Source: Moniliella sp. 'wahieum'
Lineage: Eukaryota
Assembly: GCA_003971905.1 (NCBI GenBank)
Contig: RSEE01000153.1
Location: 1 to 64,000 of the forward strand
Direction of reading: 5' to 3'
DNA: 64,000 nt
Under the pieces are notes generated by a model. That model saw nothing but the letters and a program-made list of their open reading frames with translations, made no database searches and had not been told where the DNA came from. Below, piece after piece: positions 437 to 63,880 of the stretch. Numbering within the stretch: the first letter of the stretch is position 1; each line of letters begins with the position of its first letter. Both the position numbers and the translations under genes were made by a program.

Positions 437-570
437 TGAAGCGTGAAGCTTGAAGCTTGAAGCCTGCGGAGGCGCCATCCCCCCTGAAGCTTGAAGCTTG
501 ACTTGAAGCCTCACATGAAGCTTGAAGCTTAAAGGGGCTCAGCTTCAAGGCGCTCAAGCTTGGGCTCAAG
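437..570. repeat. Patch of tandem symmetric heptamers, CTTGAAG type
   Basis: CTTGAAG twice at 449-462; further tgaagcttgaagcttga runs at 485-533; ctcaag/ctcagc variants to about 570. Confidence 0.85.
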
Positions 571-2442
571 CGGCCAAGTGACGCGGAGGGCGTGACCCGT
601 GGCCTGGCGTGACTACAAGACCAAGACGCTGCGCGTTGTTGCGTATCCATATGATTCAGCATGGTATCCTTTCGCTACGATGGTGTTCTGCTCAGTGTCA
701 GAGGGGAGCTCGGGCAGTTTTGTTACAGAGGGACTCGCGAAATATAGATCCAGCCCCAAGAGCCTGGGGTGAGATCTGAGAACGAACGGGCACAAAAGCC
801 CGTCCAGACCCTCCGAGGTAGGAGCCGCGTACGTAGGTCGTCAGACCAGCTGAAGGCGTCCAGGAGGCTCTGGAGTAAACGCGGTTTCCCGGTGGCGTTA
901 CCACACTCGACGTTGTGCTGTAGTAGGCGAATCAGACGGAATCCTAACGAAGACAAGCGCTACTGGAGTAACCATGCATAGTCGACGTAAGTTGGACATC
1001 GTGAGGCTGGTAGAAGGTGAATAGAGGTAAATGTAACAGGGCGAACAGTGTGAACGGGACAGGCTGTCGATAAGGACCACACACAGCCTTAGACAATGGC
1101 TGCTTATATACCTCATGACAGGTATAAGCAAAACGTGGGGATCTTTCCAGAGAGGGAAAGACTACACAGCCCGTGCTCTCAAAGGCGCTGACGCTACGCA
1201 ATCGGGCACAGTAGCAAGGGTTCGACCATCTGGGCGCGATGGGCACACAGCATCGTACCGATGAGCCTTGCGGCCACATGGCAGGCCGCGGACGATATGC
1301 GCAGCATGGATAAGGGTCCGCCGGCTCCCTCGCTAGTCTAGCGGGACTGACGCATGTTTGGGTAAGGTGTCTACGACATACGGGGCTCCGAGTCTGGAGA
1401 TAACCTGAGCGCCCCGGAACAATGTGGGAGGTTGGGCATGCTTCATTCGTTTCTCGAATTCGCTTGCTCGAGCACAAGAACAACTTGATGCCCCCCCAGG
1501 CCCCATCCCTGTATACGTTCCATATATATAGTATGAACGTATCCTCTCTTGTTTTGCATGTACCGCCCTCCAGAATAACGCACCTGTCTGGTGACTTCCT
1601 CTCGTCCCTGAGTCCCTCCAGTTGTGGGGTTAACATCCCCATTCAAGTGTTACCACCAAACGCTACCATACCTCGCATATCAACCAACAGTATACTGATC
1701 TCTACGCCCTTGGACTTCCATCTTGCCGTATATGATGGAACGAGCGGGAGCCACTGCAGGGATCCATTTGTCCACTCTTTTACCTTCAGAGTTCCCCCCC
1801 AAAGCATCATCAGAGGTATGGATCACGTGCGCGAGCCCTTGTACAGGGGAGCTTCATACCCTATAGTCAGCCGAGTGATTGCAAATGACGGTTAACGGGT
1901 CGAGAAGAAACGCCAGGCGCTCCGCGCTCAGTGGGTGAGCGCTCGGTGCTCAGGTTAGTCCCGTCCAAGTCTCCTACTATGCCTACTGCGGTTTCTATTA
2001 CCCCCCGCTAGCATCTCAGTCGATTCCTCCCTCCCTCCCTCCATCGATCCATCTACTCTTCGTATAACATGGAGTGTGCAACAATGTGCAAGTCCCAGTC
2101 GAGGGGGTCGCATCCTAGGAGTCCCAGTAAACCCGCAACAGTCTGTGAGTTATAGAGCGAGGAGGGAATGATAACCATACTGATGTGGGGGCGACAAGAC
2201 CAAAAAGACAATAACTTAGACCACAAACAAGGTCAAACCGGTTCCGCTTCACGGGGGGGAGAGGAAGCATGAACCAACCGGAAGGGGGGAGGAAGAAGAC
2301 GAGGAGAGGAGGAGGAGAAAAGGAAACGAAAAGGAGAAAGAGAAAAAGAGGCAGGGTACGTCCCATCTTCCCATACGCTCGCCTCTCGAAAGCCATCCAT
2401 TCACGGTGGCAACCAGAGGGGGGGAAGGGAGAAGCGGCCGGC

Positions 2443-4247: not shown

Positions 4248-5619
4248 GGCGGGGGGGAGTGAAAGTGGTGGGAGAAGCAAGACTGCGCCGGAGAGGGAAT
4301 AAAAGGCGTGGAAGGAAACGCGTGAGGCCTGAGAGGGTATATATGAACCCGTCCTGTCTGTGGTGGCCTGCGCCGGCCCGGCCGCGGTGACGGGTGAGCG
4401 GGAGGCGGGAGGCGGGAGATGTGGCCTCAGGCCGAGGCGTCGGCGCCTCAGCGCTCAACGGGCCTCAGTCTGCGGTCTGAGACTCAGATCCGAGGGGGCG
4501 GAGGCACGGAAGCGGACATAGCCACACGGCCCCTGTGCCCAGACGGCGTGGTTGCGGACGCTTCCCCCCGTGGCGCATGATACAGCACTCGCGTTAGGCC
4601 CGTTAGCCGCTCCCACCGTCCGCCACTGGCCCTGTGTCGGGGACGACTGGCTGCTGCCACGCCGTTTGGGCGCTTTCTTGCGTTGCTCGCGGTCGGCACG
4701 GGGGCAGGAGGCACGGGTCTGCACGCTTAAGCCCGCACCCCACGGGGGCAGTAGCCGGCCGTGGCAGCGGCAAGGGGCACATGCACTGCACGTGTGCCCG
4801 GGCTGGCTGGGTCTGGGGCTGTGTGACATGGGATGTGTGATGTGTGATGCATGATGGGGCACTGCACCCTGCGCTGTGCTGCCGTGCCTTGCCACCCCCG
4901 GCCTAGAATCCAAGGTGAAGCTTACGCGCTTGACGCGTGAGGGCGCCTGAGCGCCGACAACGCGCTCGTTCGGCAGGGCAGCCAGCGCAAGCGAGGCCAA
5001 CGAAACCCGTTGGCAGACCGCATCGTGGCCAGCTCCGCTCCAGCAGTCCCAGTCGCGCTGAGCCGCTGAGCCGCGAACCTGAGCGTTCGCTCGGCGTCCT
5101 GGGTGCGTTGCGCGATGCATGATCCCCGACGGTTGCGATATGCCAGCATGAGGTAGCTGGTTACCCGTTACCACCTTCGGTACCATCGGTAATCCGTACC
5201 CTTGTAACATGCAACATGCAACCACGCAACATGTAACCCTCCTGGCCCTCGCAACGCCACCATGCTAATACAGAGGGCAGCACCATGCCCATGTAACGCT
5301 CTTGCAAAGCGGCCGCAGCCTCTCCGCCGCGGCGCGGCGGCGCCGCAGGCCTGCATCTCGCGAGCGTGCATAGTATGCCACCCGCGCCCGTTAGTGCGCA
5401 GGGCACCCGCAACAGTACACTCAGGGAAGGTCCGGGAGCGGAGGCATTGGCACGCTGTGCCTTTCCCCCCCGCACTCCCTAAGGTCTAGGCGTGCCGTCC
5501 AGGTCGGTAGACGAGAGCAGACCACATGGATGTGCTGCTTTCAGCTTATGCCGGTTTGATCGAAACCAAAGTGCGCACAATACTATCGCCCGGCCTGATC
5601 GCCCGATTTGGGCTCAAGC

Positions 5620-6560
5620 GCTCAAGTCGAGCAAGCTAGCGCCCAAACTGATAATCGATGATCGATGATCGATGATCTGACAAAAACGAGCAACTTGCGC
5701 CGGAGGCGGCCCAATGCTTCCCTAAAGCTTATTGGAGCTTGAAGCATGAAGCTTGAAGCTTGAAGCTTGTTGAACGTCTGACTCCACATAGCGCGCCAAA
5801 GCAGCTGCCATCGTCACGCTCAAGCTAGCTCTCTGCAGACCTAAACTTTACAACAAGCTCCTGAGGACGCAGCAGTGCGGATGCACTCGGCAGACGCTCG
5901 GCTCCGAAAGGGGTGTGGTCCTATGGGCAGGAATTTGGTTGCCGGCTAGATACTTCCGCGGAGCACCAACGTCCAACCCTTGGGTCTTGGGCCCCTACCA
6001 CGACCGAAACGTTTCTGTGGCAAATCAGTATATCATTGCTAGGCGTTCATCCGATCATCAATGTTCGATGTACTCAATCAACGTTGACGTTTAACGTTTG
6101 ACCGTAAAAAACGTTAAAAGTTCGGTACGCTCAGCACATTCTAAACGTTCAAGCTTCAAGCTCAAAGCTTGGCGCGGTGCTCTTGTGCGCAAGCACAAGC
6201 GGAGGGCCGGGATAGTGCCTGAGCTCCTGCGGAGCAAAGCGACCCACGAGACAGAGGCCACACCATGCATCATGCATCATGGCGGCAGTCGGTGAATGTG
6301 GCAAATATGTGCCTGCGGAGGGATGCAATTCTGAAGGTGTGTGTGACGGAGACAGGCGAAACACGTCCAACGGCCAACTCCGAGTATAAAACGCTAGGCG
6401 CTAGCAACGCGTAACGTGTAACGCAACGCGCATAACGCGCAACGCGCAACGAACCGATACATGTGCCAAATCATTTGTGCGCCCCCAGGCTAAGCGCTGT
6501 GCGCGGGCGACTCTTCGCTCAGGCGCTCAGGCCTCCCTCAGGCCTCAGGCCTCAGGCTGA
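5620..6560. repeat. Several patches of tandem symmetric heptamers (GATGATC, CTTGAAG, AACGTT-centred, CATCATG, CCTCAGG)
   Basis: (GATGATC)3 at 5657-5677; aagctt runs at 5736-5768 and 6145-6170; (CATCATG)2 at 6268-6281; (CCTCAGG)3 at 6536-6556. Confidence 0.85.
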
Positions 6561-9500
6561 GTCCACAGGGAAACATCCTCTCGAATTTCAAAGGCCTCGA
6601 GAGCCATACCGCGCAGTCTCGCCGTGAACCATACATAGTAGCCAGCGCCCACATATGGGTTGCACATTGCACGTTACGTTACACCACCGCCAACCTGGAG
6701 GGAAAGGAGCCGAAGGCGGAAGCGACGGTATCCGTACTACTGTTCACAAATTATCGTCAACATCCTCGACATCATCTCACATGAACAAAACAAATGTCAA
6801 GTGTGGGAGTCGATGGCCAGAGAAGCGACTGCGGCAGAGAGGATCCCCACAGTTCACAAACACGTATAATACCAGCGAAAGGTATATCCGGTCTAGTAGC
6901 CGGTAATCGCTAAAACTAGTGATCGTCTCATGTAGCCCCACAAGCGGAGCCCCTAATAATACTTGCGGTGCCTGCATCTGTGCATCAGCTAGGTGCATCC
7001 CTCGCCATACCTGCTTGCCACCGCATTTTTCACTCAAACAAAAACGGGTGAAACCTGGGTGTTCAAACCCACTGATGACGCTGCATTGCGTGCATAACCT
7101 GAGGCCTGAGTGCCTGAGGTGAGGGCCAAACCGCCCAAAGGCTAATCTACAGGTGTCTACGGTCCAGTCATATATCATATCGCAAGTTACAACAAACCCT
7201 TCTGCGGCATGAGATCCCTCCTCAGATCTCAGGGCCTCATCGCCTCTTCCATCAACCTCATCGATCCCAGCCTGCACCATCAGACTTGGGCCTCATCGAT
7301 TGGAGGAATCGAGGTAATTAACCCTTCAGGCTCTCATATCAAGGATCAGGATCAGGCATCAGGGATGTATCAGGCCTCATGCTGAGGGGCAACATATGGA
7401 TCATTTTCCGGTGGTGCATGCCAACCACGAGACCGGCATTGCGTGTGTTACTGAGAGGATTATATGCAGTGTTGTGCAACACTGTAAGTCCACATGGCCG
7501 TGGCGTATTCCTGTCCATTACGGCACGTTTTAAACACTGGCATGAACATGTAAAAAAACCCACGGTTCGTTACTGATCCCATCGCCTTGATATATGATAG
7601 TTGGCATGCAGTGGCATATCGCCTTGAAGTCAGACCTGAGGCCGGCCTGAGGCAGGCCTGAGGCCTACAAAGCCATAAGCATCACTAGTATGTAACACTC
7701 GAAACGTCCCTCACTCGGCGGCTATACGTCCCCCTGTAAGTGAAGCACAGCAATGGTTTAATCGTCTGTTCTAGTTCACCTCCTCTTTGGTTTTTTCTTT
7801 ATCCCGTAACCATATATCAACTCTCTTTTCCTTCGACACATATAGCTGTGGCTGGATCTTTTGTCGGCGAACCGGCTTGTGCATGTCATCACCACAGAGG
7901 GTTCATGACAGTGACGAACGGGCTCATATAGAGCCCCCATTCATATATTGTTGAGGGTTACCCTCAGAGGAAATGAGCGGCTCCCGACAAAAAACAGTAT
8001 TCATGTATGCAGACGGCGGATCCGACCCGAAGCGAAACCGGCGGTTGGGGCGATATTGGCTTTATTCAGTAAAGAGGGCAATTAGGGCTGGTGTGGCAAT
8101 GATAACACCGCAGTGTGGATCTTTGCTTTGTTACTGCCAACTCGTCCCTATACTGGCTTTGGGACAGATAAGTGAGTAACTGTCACGGTCCTCTTAGCTA
8201 ATCAGGGGAATCTTCTCACCACTCTCCCCGCCGATCCTGTTCTCCCTTCTCCACCAGTGCATCCTTGGCTTCCCTTGGTACTTGGTCTCACTCGTATCGC
8301 CCGACTCTTACATAGTAACTACCGTAATTACCGCGATAATCTATGTCTTCTATTAGGCGACCTTTCTTTCCAGTTTTCTTTCCAATATCTATGAAAAAGA
8401 AGCAGAGAATGAACGAGCATGGTGAATGTAATGAATAGTTCCCACTGTAATCACGTAGGGATGAATATATAACTTGCAATGATCGCGTCGGGAGATCCTG
8501 TGAAACAACTGTGATAAATCGGAGGCGTTGTGTGGGTTCCGAAAACTTATGGGAGCGTTGCGTGGGCGTTATACGTACCCGTGGGACACAGCGCTGCAAA
8601 AGTGTCTCTGTTTTTCCTTCCGGTATGTTCGAGTGTAACACATGTACAACCGACTGCAAACAATAATCTCACTCTCTCCTGAGGCTCAGGACTCGGCCTG
8701 AATACTGAGTACCACATGAGCCCCTCTTTGACATGTCTCCTCGAGCCCAAGGCCTAAGGCCTCATTCATTACCATGTGCTTTCCTACAAGACCAATCATA
8801 TCCTTTTATTAATCTCTACACACTGTGGGTTGTCTTGTCCCCCTGGTGTCACTCTCTCGCCAACCCACTTCGTTGATACATACTCGGGCTTGAGATATCT
8901 GAATCCGCGGCCAACGGCCTGGCCTTTTCTTCCCACCAAACGCTCGCAAGTAGTCTGATTATGCTTTGTGGTTCAGAACGCATGGCCTCTCGGAAACATT
9001 TTGGTCCCACCAAAAGGACATATACCACGTCTCACCCATAATGTACAGCATGGTGGCCCAATACTCCTCTGAAAATGATATCTGGGAGGGGGGAAAGAGG
9101 GTCTATCCCCTTGCCGTTGTAGTCGCCTCTGTAGGAAACGATCAGGCTAACGCACTTCTTCTCTTTCACGCACTTTCCGACAAACTCCATGTCGTGAGTG
9201 GCTCGATTGTCCATCACAGGCAGAAACGTGCCCATTCCCCCATCGTACGGATCCCGGATCAACCACATCGACTTTTGCTATAGGATGTACCGAAGAGTCC
9301 CCAACATTAGACCGAGCTGCCACCGATCGGCGCCGCTCGTCTGGGCCGCGCCGTACTAACAGCTGAAAGCTTCTTAACAACGCGGAACCTTCGATTGGAT
9401 GAAGAAGGAGGTTGGCCGCCATCACATCATCTTCACTGCAGCATCGATTTTGATGTCATGCCTTGTCCATCCAAGGGAGCCACACACCTGCGATAGGTTT

Positions 9501-9989
9501 TCCTGGCCACAACTCCTGCACTTTCCTTTCTCGCTTTTACACCACCATCTTATAAAGCTGTGTGCTTATGACCAAAGAAAAGGCTCTCAAAAACAGCAGA
9601 GATGCACGTTAGAAACCTCTGTAAAGAGAAGCCCAAGTAGCCAAGCTGACATGTAGCAGGCCCTTATCCACACAAAAGGAATGCAAACGGAATAGATACC
9701 CTCCCCAAAGTCCCTCATAACAGTAGCAGGAGAGGGGTTATATATAGCATAGTATGCGATATATGTTTTGGCCATTCTCCACCGTGAATATATGCCTCAC
9801 ACAAAAGAACGCACAGGCCGACCACGTAGATCATGCCACCTTTCCTTTGCCTACGTCAAATCCTGACGCTCCCCCATCCTTATTAAGGACACACAGATGG
9901 AGGGAGAGAGGCGGTGCACGATGCTGATTCGGCATCTTTGGCAGGCCGCTGCTAGTTCGTGTCAATCAACCAAAGAGGAGGCCAATTGT

Positions 9990-10230
9990 TGAGTCGCCAG
10001 CAGGTCAGGATTCCCACGCCCCTCTGGCTCTCGCCATTCGCTTCCATAGGGGATATAGCTCGAGTGGATACGAATGATCGTGGTAGACCTTATTGCGACT
10101 CTTGAGTGTAAGACCTTTCGTCCAATGCTCAAATATGTTGTTGGCAGTCTTGGTGATATGTGTGCCCTTGTCGTCATGACGAAGGGGAGAGGAAAGTTTC
10201 TTCATGGTGGGTGCCACTCGACTTTGTTGC
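9990..10230 (-). mobile_element. Degenerate 3' fragment of a probable RLE-type (CRE/Cnl1-like) non-LTR retrotransposon; homologous to 19467-20035
   Basis: Frameshifted minus-strand translation LPFVMTTR/GTHITKTANNIFEHW...STTIIRIHSSYIPYGSEWREPEG aligns by eye with FSPLVLTTRGYYGTKTAGKMFAHW...STTFIRVHTRFLGYGTGWREPEG. Confidence 0.6.
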
Positions 10231-12949
10231 GCCGTGACCAACTGGCCGGACTCATATTCCCCCTACTGCCCGTTCAGTCCAAACACGAGGAGGCATACCA
10301 AGTATCGAGTGGAAGGGATGTCGGTTGTGAAGAGAAGAGCGGAGCGGAAGCCAACACAGGAGAACAAAGGAAAAGGCGCACAAGCGCGCAGATATAGCAG
10401 TGGCCTAGTGCCGCTGTCGCGCACGGTCTGTCTAGCCAAGCTACCAATCTCCACACGTCACGAGAGTGGAGGGTCTATAACATTGCTGTGCGTGTGTGTC
10501 AACCGTGTCAGTAAAACGTTTCGAGGTACCGGCGCAAAGTACAGCCTATGGCATAGCCAGCCCTACTGGCACTCCATCCTCAGGCATGAACCGGTCTTGA
10601 TCGTTGAATACAGACATGGTGGTCATTTAGTCTTACGAGACGGGATTTTCCTCTCCGTACAACGGAGGTGGAGGAGAGGGGGGAATACGATGTTATCTCA
10701 GATCTCACTCGCTATCCCCTCTGCGAATGCAAAAAGTGTTTAACGATGCTTCTTTTCTGGTCTGACATATAGGTGTACAGGTGCCGCTGGTTTGTAGGCA
10801 TGAGCTGCTAGCGACGACGGGCGCCTCCTACCCGTCCTTTTCGGGACAATGGCCGAACTAATGAATTACCGGAGAGAAGTTGTTACGTCAAACTCAAGGC
10901 ACAGAGACGAGACCTCTCATCGTCGGGTGTCCGATAAGAGTTTTGCCCCCGCCACTTTGATCACACCCAAGGTATTGACTATTAGGGATCGATTTTGGCG
11001 CTTTCACGGGTGGATTGTCCTTGTATATACTCTCACTCCTTCTCCCCACATTCTTCTTATTACTCAGTAAATTGTTCACTAGGAATGGCATTCAGTTCAC
11101 GGCCAAAGACCACCCCGAAATAATCGACATGGACAGCGAGACACTCGAAATGAGAAAGATCAGAGGTGAGGTGCGGGTGTAGAGGGCGAAATGCGACGGT
11201 GACAAAGAGTGGTCAATATCAGCAAAGAGAGAGAAATGGTGACAAAATTGGGGCTAGGCTCTCTACTGTTTTTGTTCCGTGGAGGCCGTCTGTTTAGTGA
11301 CTCTATCTGCCTCCCATCTTATTTTGCCCTTGATGGTCTCGGGCCTGAAGCTAAAAAGTTAGTTACTCGCGTGTGTCAATCGCACTCTCGTTCTCACATC
11401 CTCGTGTGGACTTTTTGTTTCTCGGTGTACTCACCGAACTCACCGAGGAGCGTATATCGCAAAAGCATTCGTCACAACAAATGGAGTCACTAGTGGCCGG
11501 AAGATTGCTGTGCGAGACGTTTTGGTTAAAGTCGGGCATTTGCTGCAGATCGCGCTCAGCGCTGTTATGGCCGCGTCGATCCGTCAGGCAGCGTCAGGTC
11601 CTTCTGTGACTCTTCCCGCGGGCCATCTTCAAATCGGATGTATGTCCTCCACAGTTTTCTGTTTCCACCGCTGATTCATGTTGTCGCAGAAGCTTGGGAA
11701 TGCATCACAAGTCGATGAAAGCACTATACATTTGGGCAGTAGTAGTAGGGACCGCAGTGGTTCGCGCGATTGATGCAACGGTTATGGGGAAAAGTGACAA
11801 CAAGAGTCCGTTCAATGATACACGTCATGTGGCATGCGACATGTGACGTGATCGCAACTAACGTGCATCCCGAACAGTCTCTGTCTACCATGGTCACTAA
11901 ACCACTGAACGGTGCGGGGGGAACTTTGGGAAGCACACACAAAACACATGAAGTGTGTGAAGTCTTCTCCTCGTCGACCGTCAACGCGTCCGGCCCGGTC
12001 GATCGATCAGACCTCCTCAGGTGCCGAAGTTGTGTCTATGATACAGAAGTTCTCCAAGATCTCGATCTCGATGTCCATAATACCATCTCCGAACCAGCGT
12101 GTGTGCTATATGTGTTAGTGTTAGCGTGATAGAGGAGAAGGGTGGATATTTCCTCTCGATCGTATCTATAGATGTGTTTTTTTTGTATGCTTTGTCCCTC
12201 ATGATGCGGGTTTGGGCTGGTTGGCTCCTCTGCGAAGCAACGTGGCCTCTAAAATCGGATGTACCTGAGACGATCAGTTAACAACGCATAAGCACTCAGT
12301 ACCCATGGCGCATGAGTCCATGAGTCGCATGGTTGCCATGATGATGCCAGCGAAAACCCATTCTTATACGAACGTCTGCCTCTTTTCTCAAGCAACGCCT
12401 TGTCGATCGGCAAAAGTGGTTTTGACGCGCCAGAGCCTTTGTTGTGATGGCGGGGGGGTTGGCGATGGTGGGTACCAGGAACATTTCTCATCGTCTTCGA
12501 TCATTGACGGGTACAGGAATTGAGAGTCTTCAAGCTTCAAGCTTCATCAGCGCTCAGCGGGCTTTTTGCACGGTGCAAAAGATGTTGCGTGCACCCGTCG
12601 GAATACTTTTTCACGATCCTAATCGAGTCCCTCTTCTAAATCCATCCCGCCAACACAATTAAGAAAGCGCAAATTGCAGTGCCAAGAACAATCCCGACGA
12701 GGCTGTTTCTGGCCTACGCCTGCTATTATGGGTGGCCGGTGGCGGTGCGGCCAAACCTTGTCTAGCCACGGTCTGCGGTGCCTGAAGAAAATGCTTGGCG
12801 AAAATGGGCCTTTCGGGGAAGGGGCATGTGCACTTCGTTTTTGAGGTACGCTGCATTGTCGTATGACATGACGAGTACTATTAATGGGTCGCGAACACGT
12901 TCCATTATATTTCCCTGAGCCTTCCATGAACGTGTACTATCACCACACC

Positions 12950-15900
12950 AAGGCTGGGCCTCTTAGGCCTCAGCCTTAGCCCTCAGCGAGGCCGGTGACC
13001 GGTGAGGTCTGTTGTTGGGCTTCAAACTAGCTGTTCAAGCTTCAAGAGCTTCAACGTTCAACGTTCAACGTAGTAGAGTAGCGCGATATACTGGCCCTCT
13101 AGTTACTAGTTGCTATTTACTATCACACATCACTTGCATCATGCATCGGCAGTCACAGTCACTTGCTTCCCAGACTCCGTGGACCCGACGAAGGCGGGTG
13201 GCACACACGCGCAGCTTGTAACATGTAACGAGATACAAAAAGCCAGCGACTACACCAATAGCCTCCTTCTGTGGCACCTCTTTTCAAATTTCAGCATCCA
13301 TCGCGACCTCCATCGCCGGGTAGATCAAGCTGATCAAGAGAGCGCCAACTCGTGGAGGACTCGAGAGTCTGTCTGGCAGCGTCCGAGGCGATAGGGTCTT
13401 TCAAAATGCCATGTTGGCCAAACTGAGTTGGCCAAGGCTCTCACCGGTCACCAATCACCGGTCACCCCCACAGTTTATAGAACGTTTTCAGGTACATCGA
13501 GATTTAAAGCGGTTGGCGACACCTGTCATGCGTCATGCTCATGCGTCACATGTCACGCGCCACGCGTCACATGTCACCTGCACAAGCCATGCATCCGTAA
13601 CACATGCCATCATGCATCAGTATCACACAACACCAGGGACAGGTCACATGCCACATGTCACCTGTCGCCGAGTATCGGGTACCCGGTATCGCCACAGGTG
13701 ATGTTGATTTGAGCTGGCGCTGACCCGGTCATCGGTGGAAGTCACTAGTCACTAGCTAGTCACTGATCAACGTCAACTACCACCGGTCACCGGTCACCTT
13801 CATGTTCCAAGTGCGTCACGCGTCGGAGCATGCCCGAACCCTGTTTACTACCTAAATCGGCCCAAGGGCTCAGTACTAGGCCCAGCGTTTCCCTGTCTTA
13901 CCTTTATGAAATTTCCCAATGTCCTGTGATGGACCCGGAAGCCTCCGGTAGTTCAGTCGTGTGGATAGGATGGGCAACGACTCACGTTTAGCCTTTGAAA
14001 ACCTGAGTGCTTGAGCCGGTGAAGCCGGTTGTGGGCAGCGGAGGAAAAGAAATATCGGTGGGCCTGTTGACAAGAACCCGATCCCCGGGCCGTATTTGCC
14101 CGGCGGCACTCGAGTGAAAACGTAGGTGTGTGGGCTTTCAATTCGTGCCACTGGGGAGGTCTGAGATCTGACATGCACCGACATGTGACATTCGTCTGAT
14201 ATATAGATATCGGACGGATGCATGGCCAGCTTTTGAGGGCCCTGTGTACGCTGGTTGAGCGCAACGCCTGAAGGGGGGGCCTTGCCGCCACGACGAAGGC
14301 ACAACGCACACCGTTGAACGTACCGAAAGTGTTGAACGTTTAACACTTTGAACGCTGAGCCACTGAGTATGCTCAAAACTTAAAGCTTAAAGCTTAATGC
14401 CACAAGTGTAAGTGCCAAACGACAAATATATCCCCGTTCAGAAAAAGTTCAATTAAGGCGGTTATTACGAGTCTGGCTGCTTCTGATCACGTTCATTAAC
14501 GTTGGGCCGCTGAGCCCGAGCCTCAGCCAACGTACTCAACGTACTCAACCCGCGCTCAGGCTGAGCGCAGCTGGAGGGTGGCAACTTTTTGCTTCGCATT
14601 CCCAGCTCCTTAATAATAAGGGCCTAGCCCTCGGCTGTCTCTAGCTCGTCTATCCTCGCTAACACAAAGAGTCACCGGAGTCACCTAGTCACCGGTCACC
14701 AATGTCGGTCAGATCAACAACTCCACCCTACTATACTTAGCACATTTTAAGGGCATCGCGCGTCCTTTTCTGGGTTCATTTTAAGGTTGTTATTGTCAGC
14801 AAGGGTTGGCTCCAGATCCTCAGACCTGTTTTGCATTTCTCCAGGGTATGTCCGGGTGTGGCTGTGGGCCAACGTCGAGAGAGCGCGCTGCAGGCCACAG
14901 CAATACAACAGCAATAATCTGACGGAGAGGTGCCGTTGCTGGACATATCATTCCGGGGGTATAATGATGACAAAAGCCAACAAAAAGTGACTCCGCAGGG
15001 ACTCGTAGATAGATCACACAACAGGTACCACCTGCCCGCACCATATCGTATTTCTGGGGAATCACTCAAACGGACCAGGCCTCAAGTGGTGGGAACAAAC
15101 CATGCCATCTCAGGGCTACTGGCGTACAGGGCATGCAATGGGCGCATATCCACCACGTACGGTCGCGGTCAGCTTCACCGGCCACGATATCCGGAGGTTC
15201 TAGGCACACACCACAGCCGAAACAGGCATCATCAACATCATCAATGATCGATGATCGGCAGCTGCGAATACACACGAAGCGCTAATAAGCGCTGCTAAGC
15301 GCTAAGCGCTAATAATTTGCAAACGCTGGCTAAGCGCTAGCGCTAATACCAAGTAAACTAGCACCTAGCAGGGGCACGTAACCACCGCAACAGCAGCCAA
15401 CGGCAACAGCGCCCCTCCGGGTCGGCTGGTGCCGGTGATTGATGATCGGTCACCGGTCATGGTCACCTGTGGGCCTGATCGTTCCATCGCGTTAGTCATT
15501 AAACCATTCCGCAGCGATGCCAGTGCGATGCCCTGCGATGCCCATAGTAGCGACGCCCATTTCAGCAGCTCCTATGCCAGGCACCGCGGGCACCGCCCAT
15601 AGGCGTCCCTCGCGCAGTTGCAGGGCAAGGGGCGCTGGTGAGCCACCTGCGGAGCTTCGCTTGGCCCATGCTGGCCACCGTGTCCAGCTAGAGCGGGGGC
15701 AAGCAGTAGAGGGCACTGGGCGGGGGTTGGGCGGTATGCGCTGCGCGGTTAGCTATAGTTGCCCGCAGCCTGAGTATCGAGTACCCTGGGGCCGGAGGCT
15801 CCGGTCTGAGTGCCGGAGATGGGCGTTGGTCCGCCATGGCCACGCCACCCCAGAGGTGACCGAGGCGCCATGGGCGCTGGGCACGCTCTCGGTCGGCCGA

Positions 15901-16640
15901 TATATAGAGCTGCCAAGTTTGCCTTAGACCCCGCATCGGAAAGCCCAACCCCCTATCCTTCCTGGAGTGGCGTATGTCCTTCCCAGCACAGTTCGTCACG
16001 CTCATCCCCGTTTGCGCTGAAAAAGCGTCCAGCACCAAGGGCGACGCCACCACCCATCAGTATACACGTTTTGTTGCAAATTCACAGAATGCACGCCAGA
16101 TCGGAGAATGCAATGATACTAGTCATTCATTATTCACATCTCAAATCTCAAACGCGTGGATGCAGTGACATGTGGCAGTCCCTACTAGTCACTAGTCACA
16201 TGTCACAAGACACATGATGTGACTATAGGGACGTATAGAAAGTCAAAAGATGCAAGTCAAGATCGCCTTCCCTGTCCAGCCCTCCCGGCTCAGGTGCCGA
16301 CGCCCAAGCGGAGCACCTCTGCGCCTGAGCCTCAGGCCTGAGTTTCTGGCCGTCTCAAGGTAGCCGCTGTGCTGCCTCCCAGTAGCTGCCGGGTCACGGA
16401 TGCCGCGTATGTCCCGGTCCCCCCCAATCACATGGCGGGGCGCCCTACGAATGAGTCTGCGAGCCGAGCAGTAGTAGTGCCTTTGGCAAACTGCATCAGT
16501 CATCGGACATCATCCATGCTGTGTCTCAATCCATCTGCCCAGGACCTGATCCAGATCCTGAGCTTGAGAGCTTGAAGCTTGAAGCTTGAGCGGTTGACCG
16601 GTGACCGTTGAACTTCAACGTTCGTTGAGCGTTGAGCATC
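12950..16640. repeat. Dense multi-type field of tandem symmetric heptamers
   Basis: (GTTCAAC)2 at 13056-13069, (AGTCACT)2 at 13740-13753, (GGTCACC)2 at 13785-13798, (CTTAAAG)2 at 14379-14392, (GCTAAGC)2 at 15294-15307, and aagctt/accggt/aacgtt runs at 16560-16632. Confidence 0.85.
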
Positions 16641-20098: not shown

Positions 20099-20128
20099 CC
20101 CCTGTCCCAGCCTTAAGCTCTGTCAATG
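20099..20128. repeat. 30-bp dispersed repeat, copy 1 (CCCCTGTCCCAGCCTTAAGCTCTGTCAATG)
   Basis: Identical to 29840-29869 and in the same orientation. Confidence 0.9.
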
Positions 20129-20320
20129 ATATGGACGCCACCTAGGCCTGACAAAAAATGGATGCAACTGTATGCTCAAGCCGTCTCCACGTTCTCCGGA
20201 ACTGGCACCTGCCGAATATGCCGCTTCCACCCCGACTTCCAACCTATGCGATTGACACCCAAATCCAAGTTCCACTGCATTGCACCAACAACGACGGCCC
20301 GTATCCAGATAGCCCGCTCT

Positions 20321-27468: not shown

Positions 27469-27510
27469 ACAGACCTTGACACCTTCCCTTGACCTACGCC
27501 CTACCCGCCT

Positions 27511-29630: not shown

Positions 29631-29673
29631 ACGCTGGAACCCTTCCACGCTGGAGAGGGCAAATAATATCACC

Positions 29674-29838: not shown

Positions 29839-29839
29839 C

Positions 29840-49800: not shown

Positions 49801-51225
49801 GGGTATATGTTGATATCAGAAGGAGACGAGGGCACAGTCGAGAGTGGACACAACAGGTTCTTCCAATTGATGAGAATCACGCCATATGTGGTTCCCATAC
49901 GGGCCTAATGGGCAAAGAACCCCCTAGCACGGCGTGAGCCTGACACAGGGACAGGACGCTTGGTACCCCCCTCCTTTCTTCGGTGATTGGGCATGCCATT
50001 GAAAGGGGCTCTCGCCGCATGCCCCTCCTTCCTTCGAGCGTCCCGACTACTAAGTCGAACAACCCTGGCATGTATTGGACGAGAGATGACGACGAGGTGA
50101 CTTGCGGAGCTCTTCATAAGTATCACGGGGCGACCATTGAATCGCCTTGCACATCCACCTCCACTTCCTTATCGTCGCTCTCGCTTTTCGGTTTCTCTCT
50201 CTATTATCACTACTCAAGTTCTCTATATCTTTCGCTATCGCTCGCTATCGTGACTCGGATTCTTCGCCCATCTACAAAACCCATAACAATTGTCTGTTCT
50301 TCACTCGCGCTCGTCTCAATTCCAAAACACTACACATGGTTTCAACTCGGTTTCTCGCCTCGTTTCTCGTCTCGGGTCCGCATTGCCATTGACCCATGCT
50401 TCTTCTCTCACCTCGTGCATCTCGTGCTTGGTCCCCACTTCTCCCTGTTGACTCGTTTCCCTGTTTAGCTGTTTCGCCGTAGACCTGTTGGTCTTTTCTT
50501 TGTCCCCATTCTCTTCTTTCAAACCTGCCTGTTCTTATATATTCAACTGTGATAGCCCAAGCCGCCCACACCATCATTCTTTTCCGCTCACTCTTCTTCT
50601 ATGCGAGCTCCACTCTAGAATAACCACCTTTTCGATCAGCTCGCTTGCTCCTACTCGCCCATCGGAGATCCACGCTTTCCCTCCCGGCCCCTAACGTGCG
50701 CCCTCCTTTGCAGACGCTGCGTGGATCTGCCCGACGAACGGAAACGCAGTATTCGCGACCGTCCTATACGTTCACGCCAGTATTCGTTGTGGACTTTGGA
50801 TATGAAACACATTCAGTCCTGGTGAGTCTATCTCCTTTGGGCAGGGAAGGTGAGTCTTATCTCCAATGGGCAGGGAAAGTCTCCGCCTGGGAAGTCAGCA
50901 ACCCCCCGTTACAATCAGGAGACATACTGTAGCCGCGGCTCCATTTGCCCGTAGTAACAGAGTCTGAATACGCGCTCTATTAATTGTGTGGCGGCAGGTC
51001 CGGTTGTGGCGCTTGTTGTAGTACACCATGCACATTGTAATCAACTCGTGTGTTTATGGGTTGTGCGAGAGTCTATGTTCCTATGAGAGCAGAGGTAAAG
51101 GTTACGCGGGAGTCAAAAGGGGGCTCTGTTAATTCACGAGAAAACAAAAGCCGGGTAATGTGTGCGTTTGTTTTAAGTAATACCGAAACAGCCGAACGCC
51201 ATCCAAAATGGTGCACCCGAATGTG

Positions 51226-52022
51226 CTACAGCTCGGTGCGGCACATGGGACAGGAACAGTTCTTCGCCAGCCATGGCATGATGCAGTCATGGTGAAATAT
51301 ATGCCCGCAGGGCAAAACGTGCCTTTAGTATCAACTTCCGAAGAGGGGGGCCGTGTTGGAGAAGCAGAGGTTGCCGTGTTAAGAATGGTGTTGAAAGCGG
51401 ACGGTTGAGGGGTAGGAGGAAGCGAGGCTTCATATTGGTCCTGCAATTGCTCCCATTCATCGGCTTCAAGCATTTGCACATCCCCCTGGTAATCGGTCCT
51501 TGGCTGTTGCGGAAATGAAAGTGTGTTGGATGGCTGCTTGGATGGGCTTATTACAGGGTTGGCCAGAACGTCGGTAACCGTGGGCCAATCCTCCAAGCAG
51601 ATCGAACATGATCCCGTGTTTTTGGTTCCACTAGGTTGGAATAATGGGAAGCGAAGGTCCACATTCGTTTTCAGGCGACAATGTGGCTCCCGTTGAAACC
51701 GGCGCCGTTCTCGTTTCTCCCAACAGCTTGCCCGCTGCCCAGCGGTTGAGAGCGCGTTGGGCCCACGAATAGTAATGCTCCCCAAGCCAACTTCTTCTTC
51801 TTCTTCGGCTTCTTCAAGCAGGTCCGAAATGATAGGCTGGCCTCGTAAAGCCCATAAGGCTCGGCGAGCGTAGTCACATGAGGGGGGCCAGTCAATAGGT
51901 TGGCCGAGCAGCATCGGCATAGGACGCCGACCGTGCCTCGTAAGTAGAAATAGACTTGGACAACTGCTGTGTGCTGGCACACGAAACACCATGGTGGGGT
52001 CTGGGAGGCGGGAGGGCTCCAT
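51226..52022 (-). CDS. RING-H2 finger protein (putative E3 ubiquitin ligase) with a long insertion inside the RING
   Basis: CSICLED near 51600, then (after about 95 codons and one frameshift) [33 protein letters not shown] at 51226. Confidence 0.7.
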
Positions 52023-53974
52023 TGGGGGGCGAGATGGTGGGGATGAAGAGGGATGCTAAGCGCCTTTCCCCGCAGGTCTGTGCTTTAAATACGAGTGTGG
52101 GGCTGGCGATGCGATGATCGATGATCGATGAGAGCCTGTTAAACATGAACGTGATGAGGTAAGGGCTGATAAGGGGCGCAGTGCCTGGCCCAGTTGTTAA
52201 TATTAAACCCGCGCACTTGCGAATCCACTCAGGCTTATTCAGGTTCACGGCGGGCTCAGCGCTCACTGAGCGCGCTCAGCGCCAGCTCAGCTAAGATGGC
52301 AGCAGCAACAGACACAGAGGTTGATTGGTCTGCGGATCCATCCCTACATTCGCCCCGATGAGGTCGATGTGGCCTGAGGCCCTGAGGCCTGATATATCTG
52401 AGCCAGCCTTAGGAGACGACTGTGATGACCAGATGGAGCACCTTATTGATGAGAATTGACCAACCACAAAGCGTGTGTACTCCCAGAGTTGCACACAGCC
52501 CCCCTACTTCTTAAACACCCTTCTCTGATCCTATCATGATAATCCCAAGAAAACAGCTCTTTGGGGCTACTTACTCGTCGACTGAACGCTCAGATCGTTA
52601 CGCGTTATATCGCTGCATGTTTTTGCCTCTGCCACAGTGAGACCTCATCTCGAGAGTGCGTGCGACAGTCATCAAGAAATGTATGACGCTCATTTCGTCT
52701 GCCGTCTCGAGTGTGTGGGGGCGTGGGGTCAGTTTTGAGTTCAATGATCAGAGATGCAGCCAAGTCTTTTGTCCAGTCATTTGTTGGACTGCCAAAGTTA
52801 ATCATTGAATAACTATAACAGAGACCGCCTGCTGTCATGAAACTGTTTCCGCTATCAGAAGACCCTATTTCCTCTAGGAGGGCAGAGGGGGGCAGCCTGG
52901 GACAGCGCAAAGAAGAAGCACAGTACCAGCTTTGATTGTCCGGGTTGTCCGCGTTGTTGGTTGTCCGCTTTGTTGGTTGCTGGGGCCACTATGCGACACA
53001 GTGTGGAAGAAAAGAGAGGTGCGGGCTGCTGTGGGGAGAAACAGTAGTAGTCAGGATTATGAGGGCGAAGCACTTTTGCTGGGTGGCACAGGGTGACAAA
53101 GGTAGTAGTTATTACTCTTGCACATTGTGCTGCCGGTTGAGGTGAGGAGGCGACCCTCCGGAGCTGCGGGTAATACATGTTTTCCAGAAGAGCACCGAGG
53201 CGCCTGAGGCCTACTGAAGCCAGTATTGAGTTGATTGAAAGCAGGAAGAGCAGGCCATAATGGTCGCTGGTGGCGCTGGACGGGATCCACAGGAGCGCTG
53301 GCACAACCGCACAGTCATCTCAAGCTCTAGAATGCACACATGCCATGTATTGGTATTTTAGGGCCGCCGTAGAGTGGCGACCTAATATACTGGTTGCAGT
53401 CTGTGTCGGGGGCAAGAGCTCGGCCGAGCCCAAGCGGGTGCAGGTGCAAGTATGGACCAAGCCGTAATCTGTAGCGGGCACGGTGCGACGGCCGGAGGTT
53501 GGTGCCGGGGGGGAGGGGGAGGGGGTGCGCCTCTCCAGACCGATGGGGGCGACCTGAGGCTGAGGTCTGGGCTACTGAGTATACGGAGGCCCTGAGGGAT
53601 CCTGGGATCTGAGATCGGACCAGGTGCCCAGGGCGCCGCTGAGCTCATCCACCACGTGACCGTTTCAAATTGCACAAGCCCCTTTTTCAAAGTTCAGCTC
53701 AGGCATCGTCGCGCAGGTGCCACTGCTGGGGCCAATTAGTAAGACTGGCGAGGTGCCCGTCAGTGGACTGCGCTGGCTGGGCACAGGCGCAGCGCCAGTG
53801 TGCGGAAAGGCCCGGGTGGGCGAGGCTGGCGCCGTGGCGCGGTGGCAGCAGCGCACGCCAGCACCCGGGCGGCACAGCGCGACACAGGCGGCACGCAGCA
53901 GCCGCACCTCGTGCGCCTCTGGGCTGCCTCGCCTGTCTTTTCTTCCCACCGCCTCTGCTGCCCGCCGAGCCGCC

Positions 53975-55639
53975 ATGTACGCTGCCCGCAACGCTCTGCG
54001 TCTGTCGCCCGCCCCCCCTCCGCGCGCTGCCCCCTGCCGGAAAGGCCTTCCTCACCACCGCCGCAAGGCCGCTGCGCCTGCGGCTGTCCGGGCCCAAGCG
54101 GTCGCTCCTGCCGCCGCCAAGCTCCAGAGTACGTGCCTTTTGTCCTTCCCTGCTGCCTCGGTCGTTCAATCGTTCCCGAAATACTCACCATGACTCCCGC
54201 TTAGCCCGTGGCCTGGCTACGCCCGCCGTGAGGCCCTTCAGGTCGGCGCGATCCGCACCGTCATTGGCCCCGTTGTCGACGTGCACTTTGACACGGACGC
54301 GCTTCCCCCCATTCTCAATGCCCTCGAGGTGGAGGGCACCGAGAACAAGCTGATTCTCGAGGTTGCTATGCACTTGGGTGAGAACACTGTTCGTGCTATT
54401 GCCATGGACGGTACCGAGGGTCTTGTCCGTGGCCAGAAGGTGAAGGACACTGGTGCCCCCATCACCATCCCCGTCGGCCCCGAGACGCTCGGCCGTATCA
54501 TCAACGTCATTGGTGAGCCCATCGACGAGCGTGGTCCGATCAGGCGGCCCACCACTCTCGATCCACCGCGAACCCCCTGAGTTTGTCGACCAGTCGACCG
54601 ACGCTGAGATTCTTGCCACGGGTATCAAGGTCGTCGACCTGCTTGCCCCCTATGCCCGTGGTGGTAAGATTGGTCTGTTCGGCGGTGCCGGTGTCGGCAA
54701 GACGGTGCTGATTCAGGAGCTGATCAACAACGTTGCTAAGGCCCCGGTGGTTACTCGGTCTTTACTGGTGTGGGTGAACGCACGCGTGAGGGCAATGACC
54801 TGTACCACGAAATGATTGAGACGGGTGTTATCCAGCTCGACGGAGAGTCCAAGGTGGCCCTCGTGTTCGGTCAGATGAACGAGCCCCCTGGCGCCCGTGC
54901 CCGTGTCGCCCTTACCGGCCTTACGATTGCCGAGTACTTCCGTGACATTGAGGGCCAGGATGTGCTTCTGTTTATCGACAACATTTTCCGTTTCACCCAG
55001 GCTGGTTCGGAGACCTCGGCTTTGCTCGGCCGTATTCCCTCGGCTGTGGGGTACCAGCCTACCCTGGCTACGGACATGGGTGCCATGCAGGAGCGGATTA
55101 CCACGACCAAGAAGGGTTCGATACCTCGGTGCAGGCCGTGTACGTGCCGGCTGACGACTTGACTGACCCTGCTCCGGCCACGACGTTTGCCACTTGGACG
55201 CGACGACTGTGCTGGCGCGTAACATTGCCGAGCTGGGTATCTACCCCGCGTCGACCCTCTGGCGTCCAAGTCGCGTAGCTCGACCCCCAGATTGTCGGCA
55301 AGGAGCACTACGACACGGCCAATGGCGTGCAGAAGCTGCTGCAGGCTACAAGTCGTCCAGGACATCATTGCCATTCTGGGTATGGACGAATTGTCCGAGG
55401 CGGACAAGCTTACGGTCGAGCGTGCGCGTAAGATGCAGCGTTTTATGTCGCAGCCCTTTGCTGTGGCCCAGGTGTTCACGGGTATCGAGGGCAAGCTGGT
55501 TCCCCTCCAAGACACGATCAAGGCGTGCAAGGAGATTCTCGCCGGTCTGCACGACGACAAGCCCGAGGGCGCCTTCTACATGGTGGGCTCCATTGAGGAC
55601 GTTGCAGCTAAGGCCGAGGAAGTGGCCAAGCAGGCTTAA
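53975..55639 (+). CDS. ATP2: Mitochondrial F1 ATP synthase beta subunit
   Basis: Arg/Ala-rich presequence; intron 54129-54204; [79 protein letters not shown]. Confidence 0.97.
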
Positions 55640-55787
55640 TTTGTCTGCCCTTTCTCGTTCTTCCCCGGATCTGCTCCGGGCATGGATATAGGTGCACAAT
55701 CCACAAATATCAATGCCTTCCTTGCCAACTTTGTCTTTCCGTCCTCTATAGCGCTCCGATGATTGATGATGATAATGAGGCCTGTTT

Positions 55788-61650: not shown

Positions 61651-62139
61651 GGCCTTGGCAGGCGAGTGGCGAGCAAGTCTGCCAGCAGAAGTTGTGGGCT
61701 CAACCTGTTAAGGGGAAGTGAGAGATGGTGGTGTGTTCATTCAGAGAAGTCCGACGCAGACTGGTAGACATAGGAGGGGAGAGAAGACGGAGAGAATAAA
61801 GGGGGTGGGTACGTGATCTGATCATGTAGCCATGTGCCGGTCTGCTTTACGTGCCCACGCTGGCACCACTCCTCATCCAATTATGAGTTTCTGTTTCCCT
61901 CATCTCCGACCTCATAGTCACCCCTCTCTCCTCGGGCCCGCGGGACAGTTGGTGTTATACGCTCCACACGAACGTGCAAAGAAAAAGTCTTCTCGTATGC
62001 GGCCGAGAAGCGCTTCTCACATTCGACGCAGCTAATGAAAACGCACAACCCTCTCTCTGCCAGATGGTACACTCTATCAGTAGTTTAGACTGCGCCACCG
62101 GCGGTCAGACAGACGGTCAGAGGAGCGGGTCAGGGGCCA

Positions 62140-63880
62140 AGGCTACCATGCATGATGGGAGTTTGCAATTTCAGCACCGGTGCAACATATATGGTGCACT
62201 CCGCATGATGCATGTGACGTATGATAAGCGATAATCGATAAGAGATCGATAAGACCGATGATCGATGGGCTGTTAATTACTGGATGTGTGAGTGATGGAA
62301 CTGGATGAGTGTGTTGAGTCACTGGGTGACTCGTCGTGTGTTATGCATGTTATCATGCATGTTACCAGTTACTAGTTACTTCAGTCCCTCCTCAGGCTGA
62401 GGCCTCAGGCCACCTCAGGCGTAGGAATTCCATTGGCTTCTCGCCTCTGCTTCCTTATTCCGCATCAGCGCATCAGCCTGCCTGCCTATTATAGCTTCCG
62501 GGCAGCGACTGCTGGCTGCTTGCTGTACCTCTGTAGGTGTTTTGTTGCTTGGCTTTGGCCACCACCACAAATGCGATTGCATCACCGTCGAGGGCCATCA
62601 CATGTCACAGGATCCCAGGTCTCAACAGAGTGGGAAGTGAGCGAGTTCTCGGCCTCCGCCTTTGCCCCAGCAGTCTGAGGAGTGTAGGGGACACGACGAG
62701 GTAATCGTGTTCGGATGCAGACGCGGACAGAAGGTGAAAACAGATGGGGGTGACCGGTGACCGATCAAGCTTGAAGCTCTTGAAGAGAAGAAAAAGGGCA
62801 ACCCACACCGAACCAGGAACACCCGGAACACAGCGCAGCACCCGTGTCTCACAGCCGGGACTAAAAGGCGAGGGAGACCAGAGGCGGGACTAGGCCAGGG
62901 GATGTAGCAATTGTTCGTGGGGAAGAAGCAAGAGCAGAGGACATGGTGCGAAGCGAAGAACAGGCAAGGAGCGAGACGCTCGGGACGAAGAAATTGGAAA
63001 TTTGAACGAGACCAGCCAAACTAAGAGACCGTGCTCGTCTCCGCACAAATCGGTTGTACGGTATGCCTGTTGTGTTGTACAGTGCATCGGACAGCTGAGA
63101 CGTGACGCGTGATACTCCACGTGGTTTGTTTTGAGAGCGCGGAATTTGATCATTCTTGGCCCCCGTTCCTCTGAGATCTGAGCGCCTGAGCTCCGCGGTC
63201 TAGGTTTGAAATTGAGCAAGCTTAGAGTATCATGCATCACTAACCACAGGTCACCGGACAGAGGTAACCAGTAAGTAGCTTGCCATCATGGATCACGCCT
63301 CACGGCCTTCGACCGCCCGATCTTTTTTAGGGCCTGAGCCTGAGCCTGAGACCTGAGGCTCAGGTCTGGGGTAGTGGTGCTGTGCGGTGTGTATAGTGCT
63401 CAACAGCTGAGCCTGGGCCAGAGCGCTCACGCGCTCACGCGTCACGCGTCACGACGACCCATCCCGCGGTCCCGACGCTTCGATCTTTTTGCGGGGGGGG
63501 GAGGCCCAGGGCGTTGGCTGACGCGCTGACGTGCTTTGCAGTCCGCAGCGTTCAAACCCAAGTTGAGGCCGTTCTGAATTCTAGTTACTAGTTAGGGCTG
63601 TTAGGGCTTAGCTGAAAGCGCCGAAACCAGCTCGAAACTTTTCCAGGCACGACCGCCAACTTGTAAACACCAGCCAGCGGAAGAAAAACGGCGTAACCCC
63701 GACTGGAAAGCGCAAGGTGCGCAAGTGCTAACCAGCAAGAGGCTAACCAGCAAGAGCACGCCTTCCAACAGTGCTCATGCATCATGCATCCTGAACGCAT
63801 AGGCTGCTCTCCAGTGCCTGAGGAAACTTGGGTGGATCCATTGAATGTAGGCCTCAGCGCCTCAGCGCCTCAGGACCAAG
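62140..63880. repeat. Patches of symmetric heptamers at the right end
   Basis: (AGTTACT)2 at 62367-62380; cctcagg/ctgagg cluster at 62388-62420; gtgaccggtgacc near 62750; (CGTCACG)2 at 63440-63453; catgcatcatgcat near 63776. Confidence 0.85.

Follow-up and report, generated by a model that had tools for sequence, protein, structure and literature searches.

Tandem 7-bp T-N-A palindromes in non-coding DNA of Moniliella sp. 'wahieum', probably stacked excision scars of a flank-hairpin transposon

What process would stud intergenic DNA with tandem units of 7 base pairs (bp) whose flanks vary but keep dyad symmetry around a T-N-A core? The question is raised by the first 64,000 nucleotides (nt) of contig RSEE01000153.1 (assembly GCA_003971905.1) of Moniliella sp. 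'wahieum', the whole stretch of DNA analysed here and called the window below. A sequence-only reading had listed such arrays, had found none in the long coding sequences, and had proposed a process keyed on a TNA core plus symmetry. We write a site as ab-TNA-cd, where N is any base, S is C or G, and b'a' is the inverted complement of ab; pal4 is a 4-nt palindrome. The best explanation that the sequence offers is that the arrays are accumulated repair scars of cut-and-paste transposition and not functional repeats. More specifically, they are probably stacked excision scars of a transposon that forms hairpins on flanking DNA and makes 7-bp target duplications at T-S-A.

The pattern is real and strongly non-random. 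First, all 11 of the arrays cited by the sequence-only reading were found, at the positions it gave or a few bases off. A count of exact tandems with two or more copies gave 46 for period 6, 44 for period 7, 12 for period 8 and 8 for period 9. The period-7 units can be rotated to the dyad form XYZ-N-Z'Y'X' in 31 of the 44 cases, where chance would be about 7/64 (hand-calculated), and Z is T in all 31. Dyad units at the other periods were 19/231 (period 4), 23/86 (5), 1/46 (6), 0/12 (8) and 0/8 (9), the enrichment being at period 7 only. Second, single dyad heptamers with T in third place occur 326 times against 193 ± 13 in 100 shuffles, all shuffle controls here being dinucleotide-preserving shuffles of the window; heptamers with A, C or G in third place showed no enrichment in the same comparison. 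Third, the count of TNA-pal4-TNA against shuffled DNA that had been proposed as a check gave a strong excess, with 93 junctions of identical N in the window against 2.1 ± 1.6 in 60 shuffles; each of the other 15 c1-N-c3 cores flanks a pal4 at most 16 times in the window. As a natural-DNA control we took 887,757 bases from 80 metagenome loci, which are matches (72-90% identity) to the ATP synthase beta-type open reading frame (ORF) at 54740-55159 and are assumed to be unrelated and largely bacterial; taken as unrelated DNA they are uninformative on relatives, and they serve as a control only. The pattern occurs 54 times there, and 7.7% of TNA-N4-TNA are palindromic (the chance level), as against 93 times in 64,000 bases and 58% in the window.

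The junctions are diverse in everything except the core. Fifteen of the 16 tetramer palindromes are in use, more than the nine listed in the sequence-only reading, and AGCT is the commonest (18/93). The central base can indeed be any of the four (C 40, G 38, A 9, T 6). T-S-A is favoured over its availability, with 78 junctions centred on C or G and 15 on A or T, against 1010 and 490 free sites in non-coding-like DNA (chi-square about 11.6, hand-calculated).

The key to the arrays is how each palindrome relates to its surroundings. The 93 junctions fall into 79 chains, of which 65 hold two TNAs and 14 hold three. A left rule requires that the second half of the palindrome equal the dinucleotide preceding the first TNA, and a right rule that its first half equal the dinucleotide following the last TNA. 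The palindrome matches the left flank only in 28 of the 79 chains, the right only in 25, both in 11 and neither in 15; at least one flank is thus matched in 64, where chance would give about 12% (hand-calculated). The palindrome therefore copies two bases of one flank only in 53 of 79 chains, which argues that each unit is a flank-templated insertion of 7 nt. The elementary event converts ab-TNA-cd into ab-TNA-b'a'ab-TNA-cd or ab-TNA-cdd'c'-TNA-cd. The usual instance is ab-TNA-b'a'ab-TNA-cd with cd unrelated, which is the expected outcome of a 7-nt insertion into ab-TNA-cd. Dyad symmetry is a product and not a requirement, and full symmetry arises only with stacked events or chance agreement of both flanks. 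Hence the TNA core of the process proposed earlier stands, and its symmetry falls, since those 53 chains are one-sided.

Several further features follow the same rule. The chain AG-TCA-CTAG-TCA-CATG-TCA-CA (16187-16207) has its first palindrome from the left flank and its second from the right, as two separate events would give. The three-TNA arrays are homogeneous in 12 of 14 cases, because a site within a scar has the same bases on either side. When the ancestral sites of the 53 one-sided arrays are reconstructed, no strong consensus emerges besides T-S-A; A is scarce at -3 (4/53) and +2 (7/53), and CT is the commonest left dinucleotide (11/53). When both strands are counted, the pentamer abTNA recurs as a direct repeat across a 2-nt spacer 129 times (5.3 expected), with weaker enrichment at spacers of 1, 3 and 4 nt (21, 35 and 44 against about 5 each). 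Of these 129 spacers, 92 read b'a' and 7 more are ambiguous, 3 read TN' and 27 have another sequence; the 92 against 3 indicate that the inverted bases always come from the end distal to the TNA. Even palindromes with 2 nt per arm number 99 against 0.3 expected; arms of 1 and 3 nt were found 8 times and once, and the three odd-centred forms 8, 4 and 1 times.

The mechanism that we propose runs as follows. A mobile element would integrate by a 7-bp staggered cut centred on T-N-A, with T-S-A favoured, and would so duplicate abTNAcd. On excision hairpins would seal both flanks precisely where the duplication ends, and opening of the hairpins 2 nt from the tip would yield the 4-nt palindromic overhangs cdd'c' and b'a'ab, of which end joining would mostly retain one and lose the other. 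Keeping either overhang would give left- and right-type products in equal numbers, matching the 28 and 25 observed. Rarer outcomes would be unaltered ends (a plain 7-bp duplication), a full copy plus two palindromic (P) nucleotides (period 9), the loss of a single base (period 8) and the retention of both overhangs (period 11). Each scar would add a second TNA in the same context, so that repeated hits or later slippage would produce homogeneous heptamer arrays. Scars would persist in non-coding DNA, because inserting 7 nt shifts the reading frame and TNA reads as a stop codon on one of the two strands, and would then decay by point mutation. The steps have known parallels. Artemis usually opens hairpins 2 nt from the tip, and end joining with fill-in can unite a blunt end and a 3' overhang. 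The available text of one source describes hairpins formed on flanking DNA by hAT, Transib and MULE transposases and by RAG, whose joining leaves footprints, and states that host enzymes presumably open these hairpins before end joining (PMC5499845).

We scored the junctions by their two end states relative to the 7-bp duplication abTNAcd, from -2 to +2 (bases lost or palindromic bases added). The class left -2/right +2 holds 23 junctions exclusively and 7 that also fit -1/+1, and the class left +2/right -2 holds 19 exclusively and a further 8, with 0.08 expected for each; 21 fully dyad 14-mers are compatible with all classes. Plain non-dyad TNA-centred 7-bp duplications number five, such as two copies of CG-TCA-TG at 362-376, which is non-palindromic and which we read as both target copies kept with no P nucleotides. 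Period 9 (abTNAcd, 2 P nt, abTNAcd) was found at 6 loci against 0.0 in shuffles; examples are GATCAAG + CT + GATCAAG at 13323-13338 and CTTGAAG + CT + CTTGAAG at 62770-62785, the latter following two copies of GGTGACC (the whole at 62749-62785). Period 8 (one end -1, the other +2) was found at 11 TNA loci, among them GCTCACG-C-GCTCACG, which runs into 2.7 copies of CGTCACG at 63435-63453 (the whole at 63425-63453). Period 11, read as both hairpin overhangs kept, was found at two loci: CC-TGA-GGCC-GGCC-TGA-GG, with adjacent flank-derived palindromes (7635-7652), and AG-TCA-CTAG-CTAG-TCA-CT, a double palindrome that follows two copies of AGTCACT at 13740-13755 (the whole at 13740-13764). Three product types coincide at 14670-14698, namely AGTCACC + GG + AGTCACC (period 9), AGTCACC-T-AGTCACC (period 8) and TCA-CCGG-TCA. 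The variants at periods 6, 8, 9 and 11 are all explicable by the same end states. The 15 non-TNA cores pooled gave about 5 independent loci at period 9, about 4-5 at period 8 and none at period 11, and most of their hits in these by-product classes echo the same loci or a coding 9-bp repeat at 21.3 kilobases (kb). That repeat, CAGCTTGGG, lies in coding-like DNA at 21275-21345 in 7.9 copies and includes AGCT; it gave false echoes in the period-9 control.

Arrays with period 8 were also noted at 5056-5074, 46357-46381 and 63851-63873. Nearly all period-8 arrays are C-T-S-A-G plus G or C, such as GCCTCAGC and CCTGAGCG. They fit the product with one base lost and are confined to this single core context.

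How long is the duplication? Plain 7-bp tandems are not core-specific evidence, because every exact tandem will score for one core or another in one of its phases, and we judged the length on a phase test and on the classes of period 8, 9 and 11 only. In the phase test, five of six non-dyad exact 7-bp tandems holding a TNA include the TNA-centred phase (p about 0.012, hand-calculated), four of the tandems allowing just two of the seven phases. From these small counts we infer a duplication of 7 bp rather than 5 bp. A 5-bp duplication of abTNA with 2 P nt yields the main product but not periods 9 and 11, and it also predicts TN' spacers, which stand at 3 against 92 for b'a'. A 3-bp duplication of TNA with P nucleotides was likewise rejected, the TNA-TN'..N'A-TNA joints that it predicts not being the ones observed; TNATNA itself is mildly enriched (66 against 40).

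The same data bear on an origin in replication errors, in which heptamer hairpins would promote slippage or fold-back template switching (quasi-palindrome correction) and so give self-expanding repeats. The arrays are nearly self-complementary, and their length of 2 to about 5 copies could be produced by slippage once a unit had been duplicated. Nevertheless we regard this origin as quite improbable: dyad enrichment is confined to period 7 and missing at 4, 5, 6, 8 and 9, only T..A cores are affected although G..C or C..G would pair better, and both the one-sided templating and the by-products of period 8, 9 and 11 follow end joining. Hairpin slippage and quasi-palindrome correction are unsupported because only period 7 and T..A are affected, and fold-back priming on the T..A pair was ruled out because G..C and C..G cores are not enriched. 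Ordinary micro- or minisatellite slippage implies a free unit and no dependence on flanks; here 31 of the 44 units share one rule, and the flanks act as template. Among the candidates that the sequence-only reading had offered, a transposon footprint with 7-bp duplication and hairpin P nucleotides fits the fine structure. Selection for hairpin or cruciform structure and fold-back switching do not, dyads being enriched at period 7 alone and around T..A alone, with no enrichment for A..T, C..G or G..C.

Where do the junctions lie? The window is eukaryotic DNA of about 57% guanine plus cytosine (G+C), and its genes are interrupted by introns. The junctions are almost confined to non-coding DNA, in line with the earlier remark on the long coding sequences. 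By a crude period-3 measure of coding, 9 of the 93 fall in DNA with a signal above 1.5 (47% of the window) and none in DNA with a signal above 2.5 (23% of the window). In a comparison by eye no junction lies wholly within a Pfam-supported ORF, and two adjoin ORF ends. The junctions come in blocks at 0-1, 4-8, 12-17, 41.5-42, 45.5-48, 52-52.6, 59-60 and 62-64 kb. Some stand upstream of genes, at 25.5 kb, 45.6-48 kb and 52.1-52.6 kb; others occupy the convergent spacer between the 3' ends of the NOT1 and major facilitator superfamily (MFS) genes at 41.8-42.0 kb. Some non-coding-like kilobases, such as 8-10, 17-19 and 48-52 kb, are free of them.

The arrays also have an age structure. Sites that keep all seven constraints number 93 (2.0 expected), those with one broken 137 (53.6) and those with two broken 581 (518), an excess of about 83 one-off and 63 two-off copies; at the T and A positions the breaks are predominantly transitions. 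We read this as a decay series in which, by our estimate, about one in 10 constrained bases has on average been substituted.

Location and decay together bear on arrays of dimeric transcription factor sites (bZIP-like TGAC/GTCA half-sites, MluI-box-like ACGCGT and others) kept by promoter selection. The arrays are intergenic and often upstream of genes, and some units contain motifs that we take to resemble known fungal transcription factor sites. Still, selection of this kind is very improbable as their origin, given that 15 tetramer palindromes are in use, that the palindrome is set by whichever two bases flank the site, that arrays are present also in the convergent 3'-3' spacer at 41.8-42.0 kb, and that perfect, one-off and two-off copies form a decay series. 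The earlier view that no single sequence-specific factor would select such units held up: a shared consensus is lacking, and the 15 palindromes with all four central bases are dictated by the flanks. Individual arrays may nonetheless have been co-opted as binding sites. An assembly or sequencing artefact is very unlikely, since avoidance of coding DNA, a flank-dependent rule and decay with an excess of transitions would all be unexpected of it.

We found no published description of this pattern in the literature searched (titles and abstract openings), and we compared it with known systems. In V(D)J recombination hairpins are usually opened 2 nt from the tip; as with the P nucleotides of V(D)J coding joints, the even palindrome here derives from the terminal bases of a hairpin-capped end and is typically 2 nt. 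Transposition by Transib and RAG makes 5-bp duplications, in contrast to the 7 bp indicated by the by-products here, and the window showed no gene resembling RAG or Transib. Closer in products is Ac/Ds. Its scars in Candida albicans, in the text available, are short deletions with palindromic P insertions, two types predominating among 28, and hAT excision footprints interpreted by a hairpin model are described there from plants, budding yeast and C. albicans (PMC5873905). As with Ac/Ds, both target copies appear to stay at the empty site, to judge here from the five plain duplications and six period-9 loci, and the joint combines short deletions with flank-templated palindromic insertions, few products predominating (PMC5873905, text available). 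Unlike Ac/Ds, which duplicates 8 bp, the duplication here would be 7 bp by its by-products, and the scars build arrays whereas those of Ac/Ds stand at single reversion sites.

Elements that duplicate 7 bp are described from basidiomycetes. The hAT7 elements of rust fungi encode hAT transposases and make 7-bp target duplications, and are described from Pucciniales only; Kyakuja (KDZ) of Laccaria bicolor makes 7-bp duplications and has CA..TG termini and no inverted ends (PMC12730594, the available text). Like hAT7, the source of the Moniliella arrays would combine a basidiomycete host, a 7-bp duplication (here deduced from scars and not from an inserted element) and membership of a flank-hairpin superfamily; unlike it, the window holds no hAT domain (0 of 203 ORFs), and the available hAT7 text gives no target consensus or scars (PMC12730594). 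Kyakuja shares the basidiomycete host and the 7-bp duplication; it differs in that no KDZ domain is found in the window, and the part of the text available gives neither excision chemistry nor scars for it (PMC12730594). The cut-and-paste element T1 of Cryptococcus deneoformans placed 41 of 46 new insertions in intergenic DNA, 34 of the 41 within 200 bp of a transcription start; no target motif was found for it, no insertions were seen between convergent genes, and the text available reports no scars (PMC9942834). The strong intergenic bias in a basidiomycete is thus shared with T1, and the T-S-A target and the scars in one convergent spacer are not. Other Cryptococcus elements have other duplication lengths in the text available, namely CNIRT6 3 bp, CNEST TA and KDZ2/3 4-8 bp (PMC12810828).

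A number of points weigh against the excision-scar reading. The most direct is that no element was found. A strict scan of the window (exact 7-bp duplication, inverted ends matching at 11 or more of 14 positions) gave no credible element; of its three pairs one lay between two GATGATC arrays, and the other two combined poorly matching ends with non-TNA duplications. A lenient scan (one mismatch allowed, TNA-centred, ends matching at 10 or more of 12) gave none either, its four pairs being three artefacts of CTTGAAG arrays and one 10/12 end match that spans the NOT1-like and MFS-like genes. The search for transposons flanked by 7-bp or TNA target duplications, which had been suggested as a check, thus came out negative in the window. 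No transposase family matched any of the 203 ORFs of at least 110 amino acids (aa) in the window (Pfam, E <= 1e-5). A candidate element-end motif occurs there 5 and 2 times, about as often as by chance, with no matching flanks, and none of the long repeats of the window is element-like. The products raise further points. Fifteen of the 79 chains follow neither flank rule; growth of an array by slippage after a first event is indistinguishable from repeated hits; and the loci that bear on a 7-bp rather than a 5-bp duplication are few (6, 11 and 2). At the duplication edge the palindromes have even centres (99, against 8, 4 and 1 odd-centred), unlike those of Ac/Ds, for which the available text puts the centre at the complement of the base that abuts the element (PMC5873905). 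Unlike in Ac/Ds, too, one class (-2/+2) dominates, and the spectrum is far narrower than the published one, so far as that text gives it (PMC5873905). The coding mask is crude, as said, and the density is high: perfect junctions cover 651 nt, or 1.9% of 33,870 non-coding-like bases, and we estimate a few per cent of the non-coding DNA once decayed copies are included.

One rival account is a host enzyme. A domesticated transposase or other nuclease might act in open chromatin, breaking T-S-A sites with a 7-bp stagger and capping the ends as hairpins, and so leave +7 scars directly with no mobile element. With it would agree that 64 kb hold no element or transposase, that the outcome is highly stereotyped (the even 2-nt palindrome against few of the other forms), and that density is high, many distinct sites being clustered within a few hundred bases. 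We nevertheless think this account unlikely, if worth keeping in view. A staggered break alone does not give both ends the full 7 bp, so that fill-in or a prior duplicating insertion would be required; elements with 7-bp duplications are known in basidiomycetes (PMC12730594, in the text available); and one 64-kb window lacking a copy says little about a low-copy cut-and-paste family. Excision scars of a transposon remain the account that we prefer.

The other arrays that we catalogued can be given in order. At 435-534 lies a TGA-AGCT chain cluster of CGTGAAG/CTTGAAG units, with right-flank-templated chains at 444-460 and 516-525 and a CTTGAAG run at 444-463. It is followed by three copies of GATGATC (TGA-TCGA, both flanks matching) at 5654-5677, CTTGAAG (TGA-AGCT) at 5732-5769, in 5.4 copies by Tandem Repeats Finder, CATCATG (TCA-TGCA, 2.6 copies) at 6264-6281 and CCTCAGG (TCA-GGCC, three copies) at 6536-6557. 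The next block holds 2.7 left-flank-templated copies of CTTCAAG (12528-12546), three of GTTCAAC (TCA-ACGT; 13050-13071), 2.6 of GGTCACC (TCA-CCGG; 13781-13798), 2.7 of CTTAAAG (TAA-AGCT, with central base A; 14379-14397), 2.7 of GCTAAGC (TAA-GCGC; 15294-15312) and three of CTTGAAG (16569-16589). CCTGAGG x2 (25540-25554) lies in the upstream spacer of the serine palmitoyltransferase-like gene, and CGTGACG x2 (41890-41905) in the spacer between the NOT1-like and MFS-like 3' ends. Two arrays of CGTCACG x2 stand at 45961-45974 and 46031-46045 (45961-46045 overall), GATGATC x2.9 lies upstream of the ATP synthase beta-like gene (52112-52131), and AGTTACT x2, with central base T, is at 62367-62380.

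The Pfam-supported genes of the window are RCC1-like (minus strand), serine palmitoyltransferase-like (plus), GHMP-kinase-like (minus), ATG2 (minus), NOT1 (plus), an MFS transporter (minus), ATP synthase beta-type (plus) and BAR/PH (minus). Among named proteins, those nearest to the palmitoyltransferase fragment are basidiomycete, at 44-46% identity; two further proteins are 81-87% identical. On these grounds the host is taken to be a fungus, and probably a basidiomycete whose lineage has been sparsely sampled. The ATPase gene at 53643-55700 is of F1 ATP synthase beta type, with a 140-aa exon up to 90% identical to metagenome loci; an assignment of the ORF at 54740-55159 as a vacuolar ATPase subunit was dropped when a protein search returned the ATP synthase beta type. 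Two blocks, 5264-16636 (about 11 kb) and 45700-53600 (about 8 kb), have about 50% G+C and few long ORFs, with no Pfam match; they carry most of the scars, their parts at 8-12 kb and 48-52 kb carrying almost none. The CTTGAAG arrays at 435-534 and 5732-5769 bracket a 5.2-kb gene-like block of minus-strand ORFs, again with no Pfam match. Among other repeats, an 87-nt unit is exactly tandem at 29674-29838 (1.9 copies, 100% identical), just past the 3' end of the ATG2-like gene, and adjoins a complex 26/34-nt repeat block at 29479-29632. Two 54-nt segments 9.7 kb apart (20099-20152 and 29840-29893) are 83% identical, perfectly so over the first 30 nt, and may be a short dispersed repeat or an element end. 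Two 52-nt direct repeats, 96% identical and 62 nt apart, lie at 27504-27617, directly downstream of the serine palmitoyltransferase-like ORF.

What, then, do the arrays mean for this genome? They are best read as a trace of a known kind, the excision scar, in an unusually dense, stereotyped and tandem-repeat-building form. TNA-b'a'ab-TNA is a simple signature for screening other genomes. More speculatively, and with a good deal of doubt, the enzyme of a new element family or a domesticated flank-hairpin transposase might act as a genome-wide T-S-A "writer" of 7-base flank-templated palindromic insertions in open chromatin, building a few per cent of intergenic DNA. Such a process would propagate itself, because each scar makes a new target, and it would be a previously unrecognised birth route for short tandem repeats and new promoter sequence. 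If the excision-scar reading holds, the window preserves a dense and readable record of transposon traffic, with its target, duplication length, hairpin-opening position and joining outcome. Host repair would then open hairpins at one fixed position, excision scars could form a measurable share of intergenic DNA, and stacked scars would be a source of new tandem repeats beside genes.

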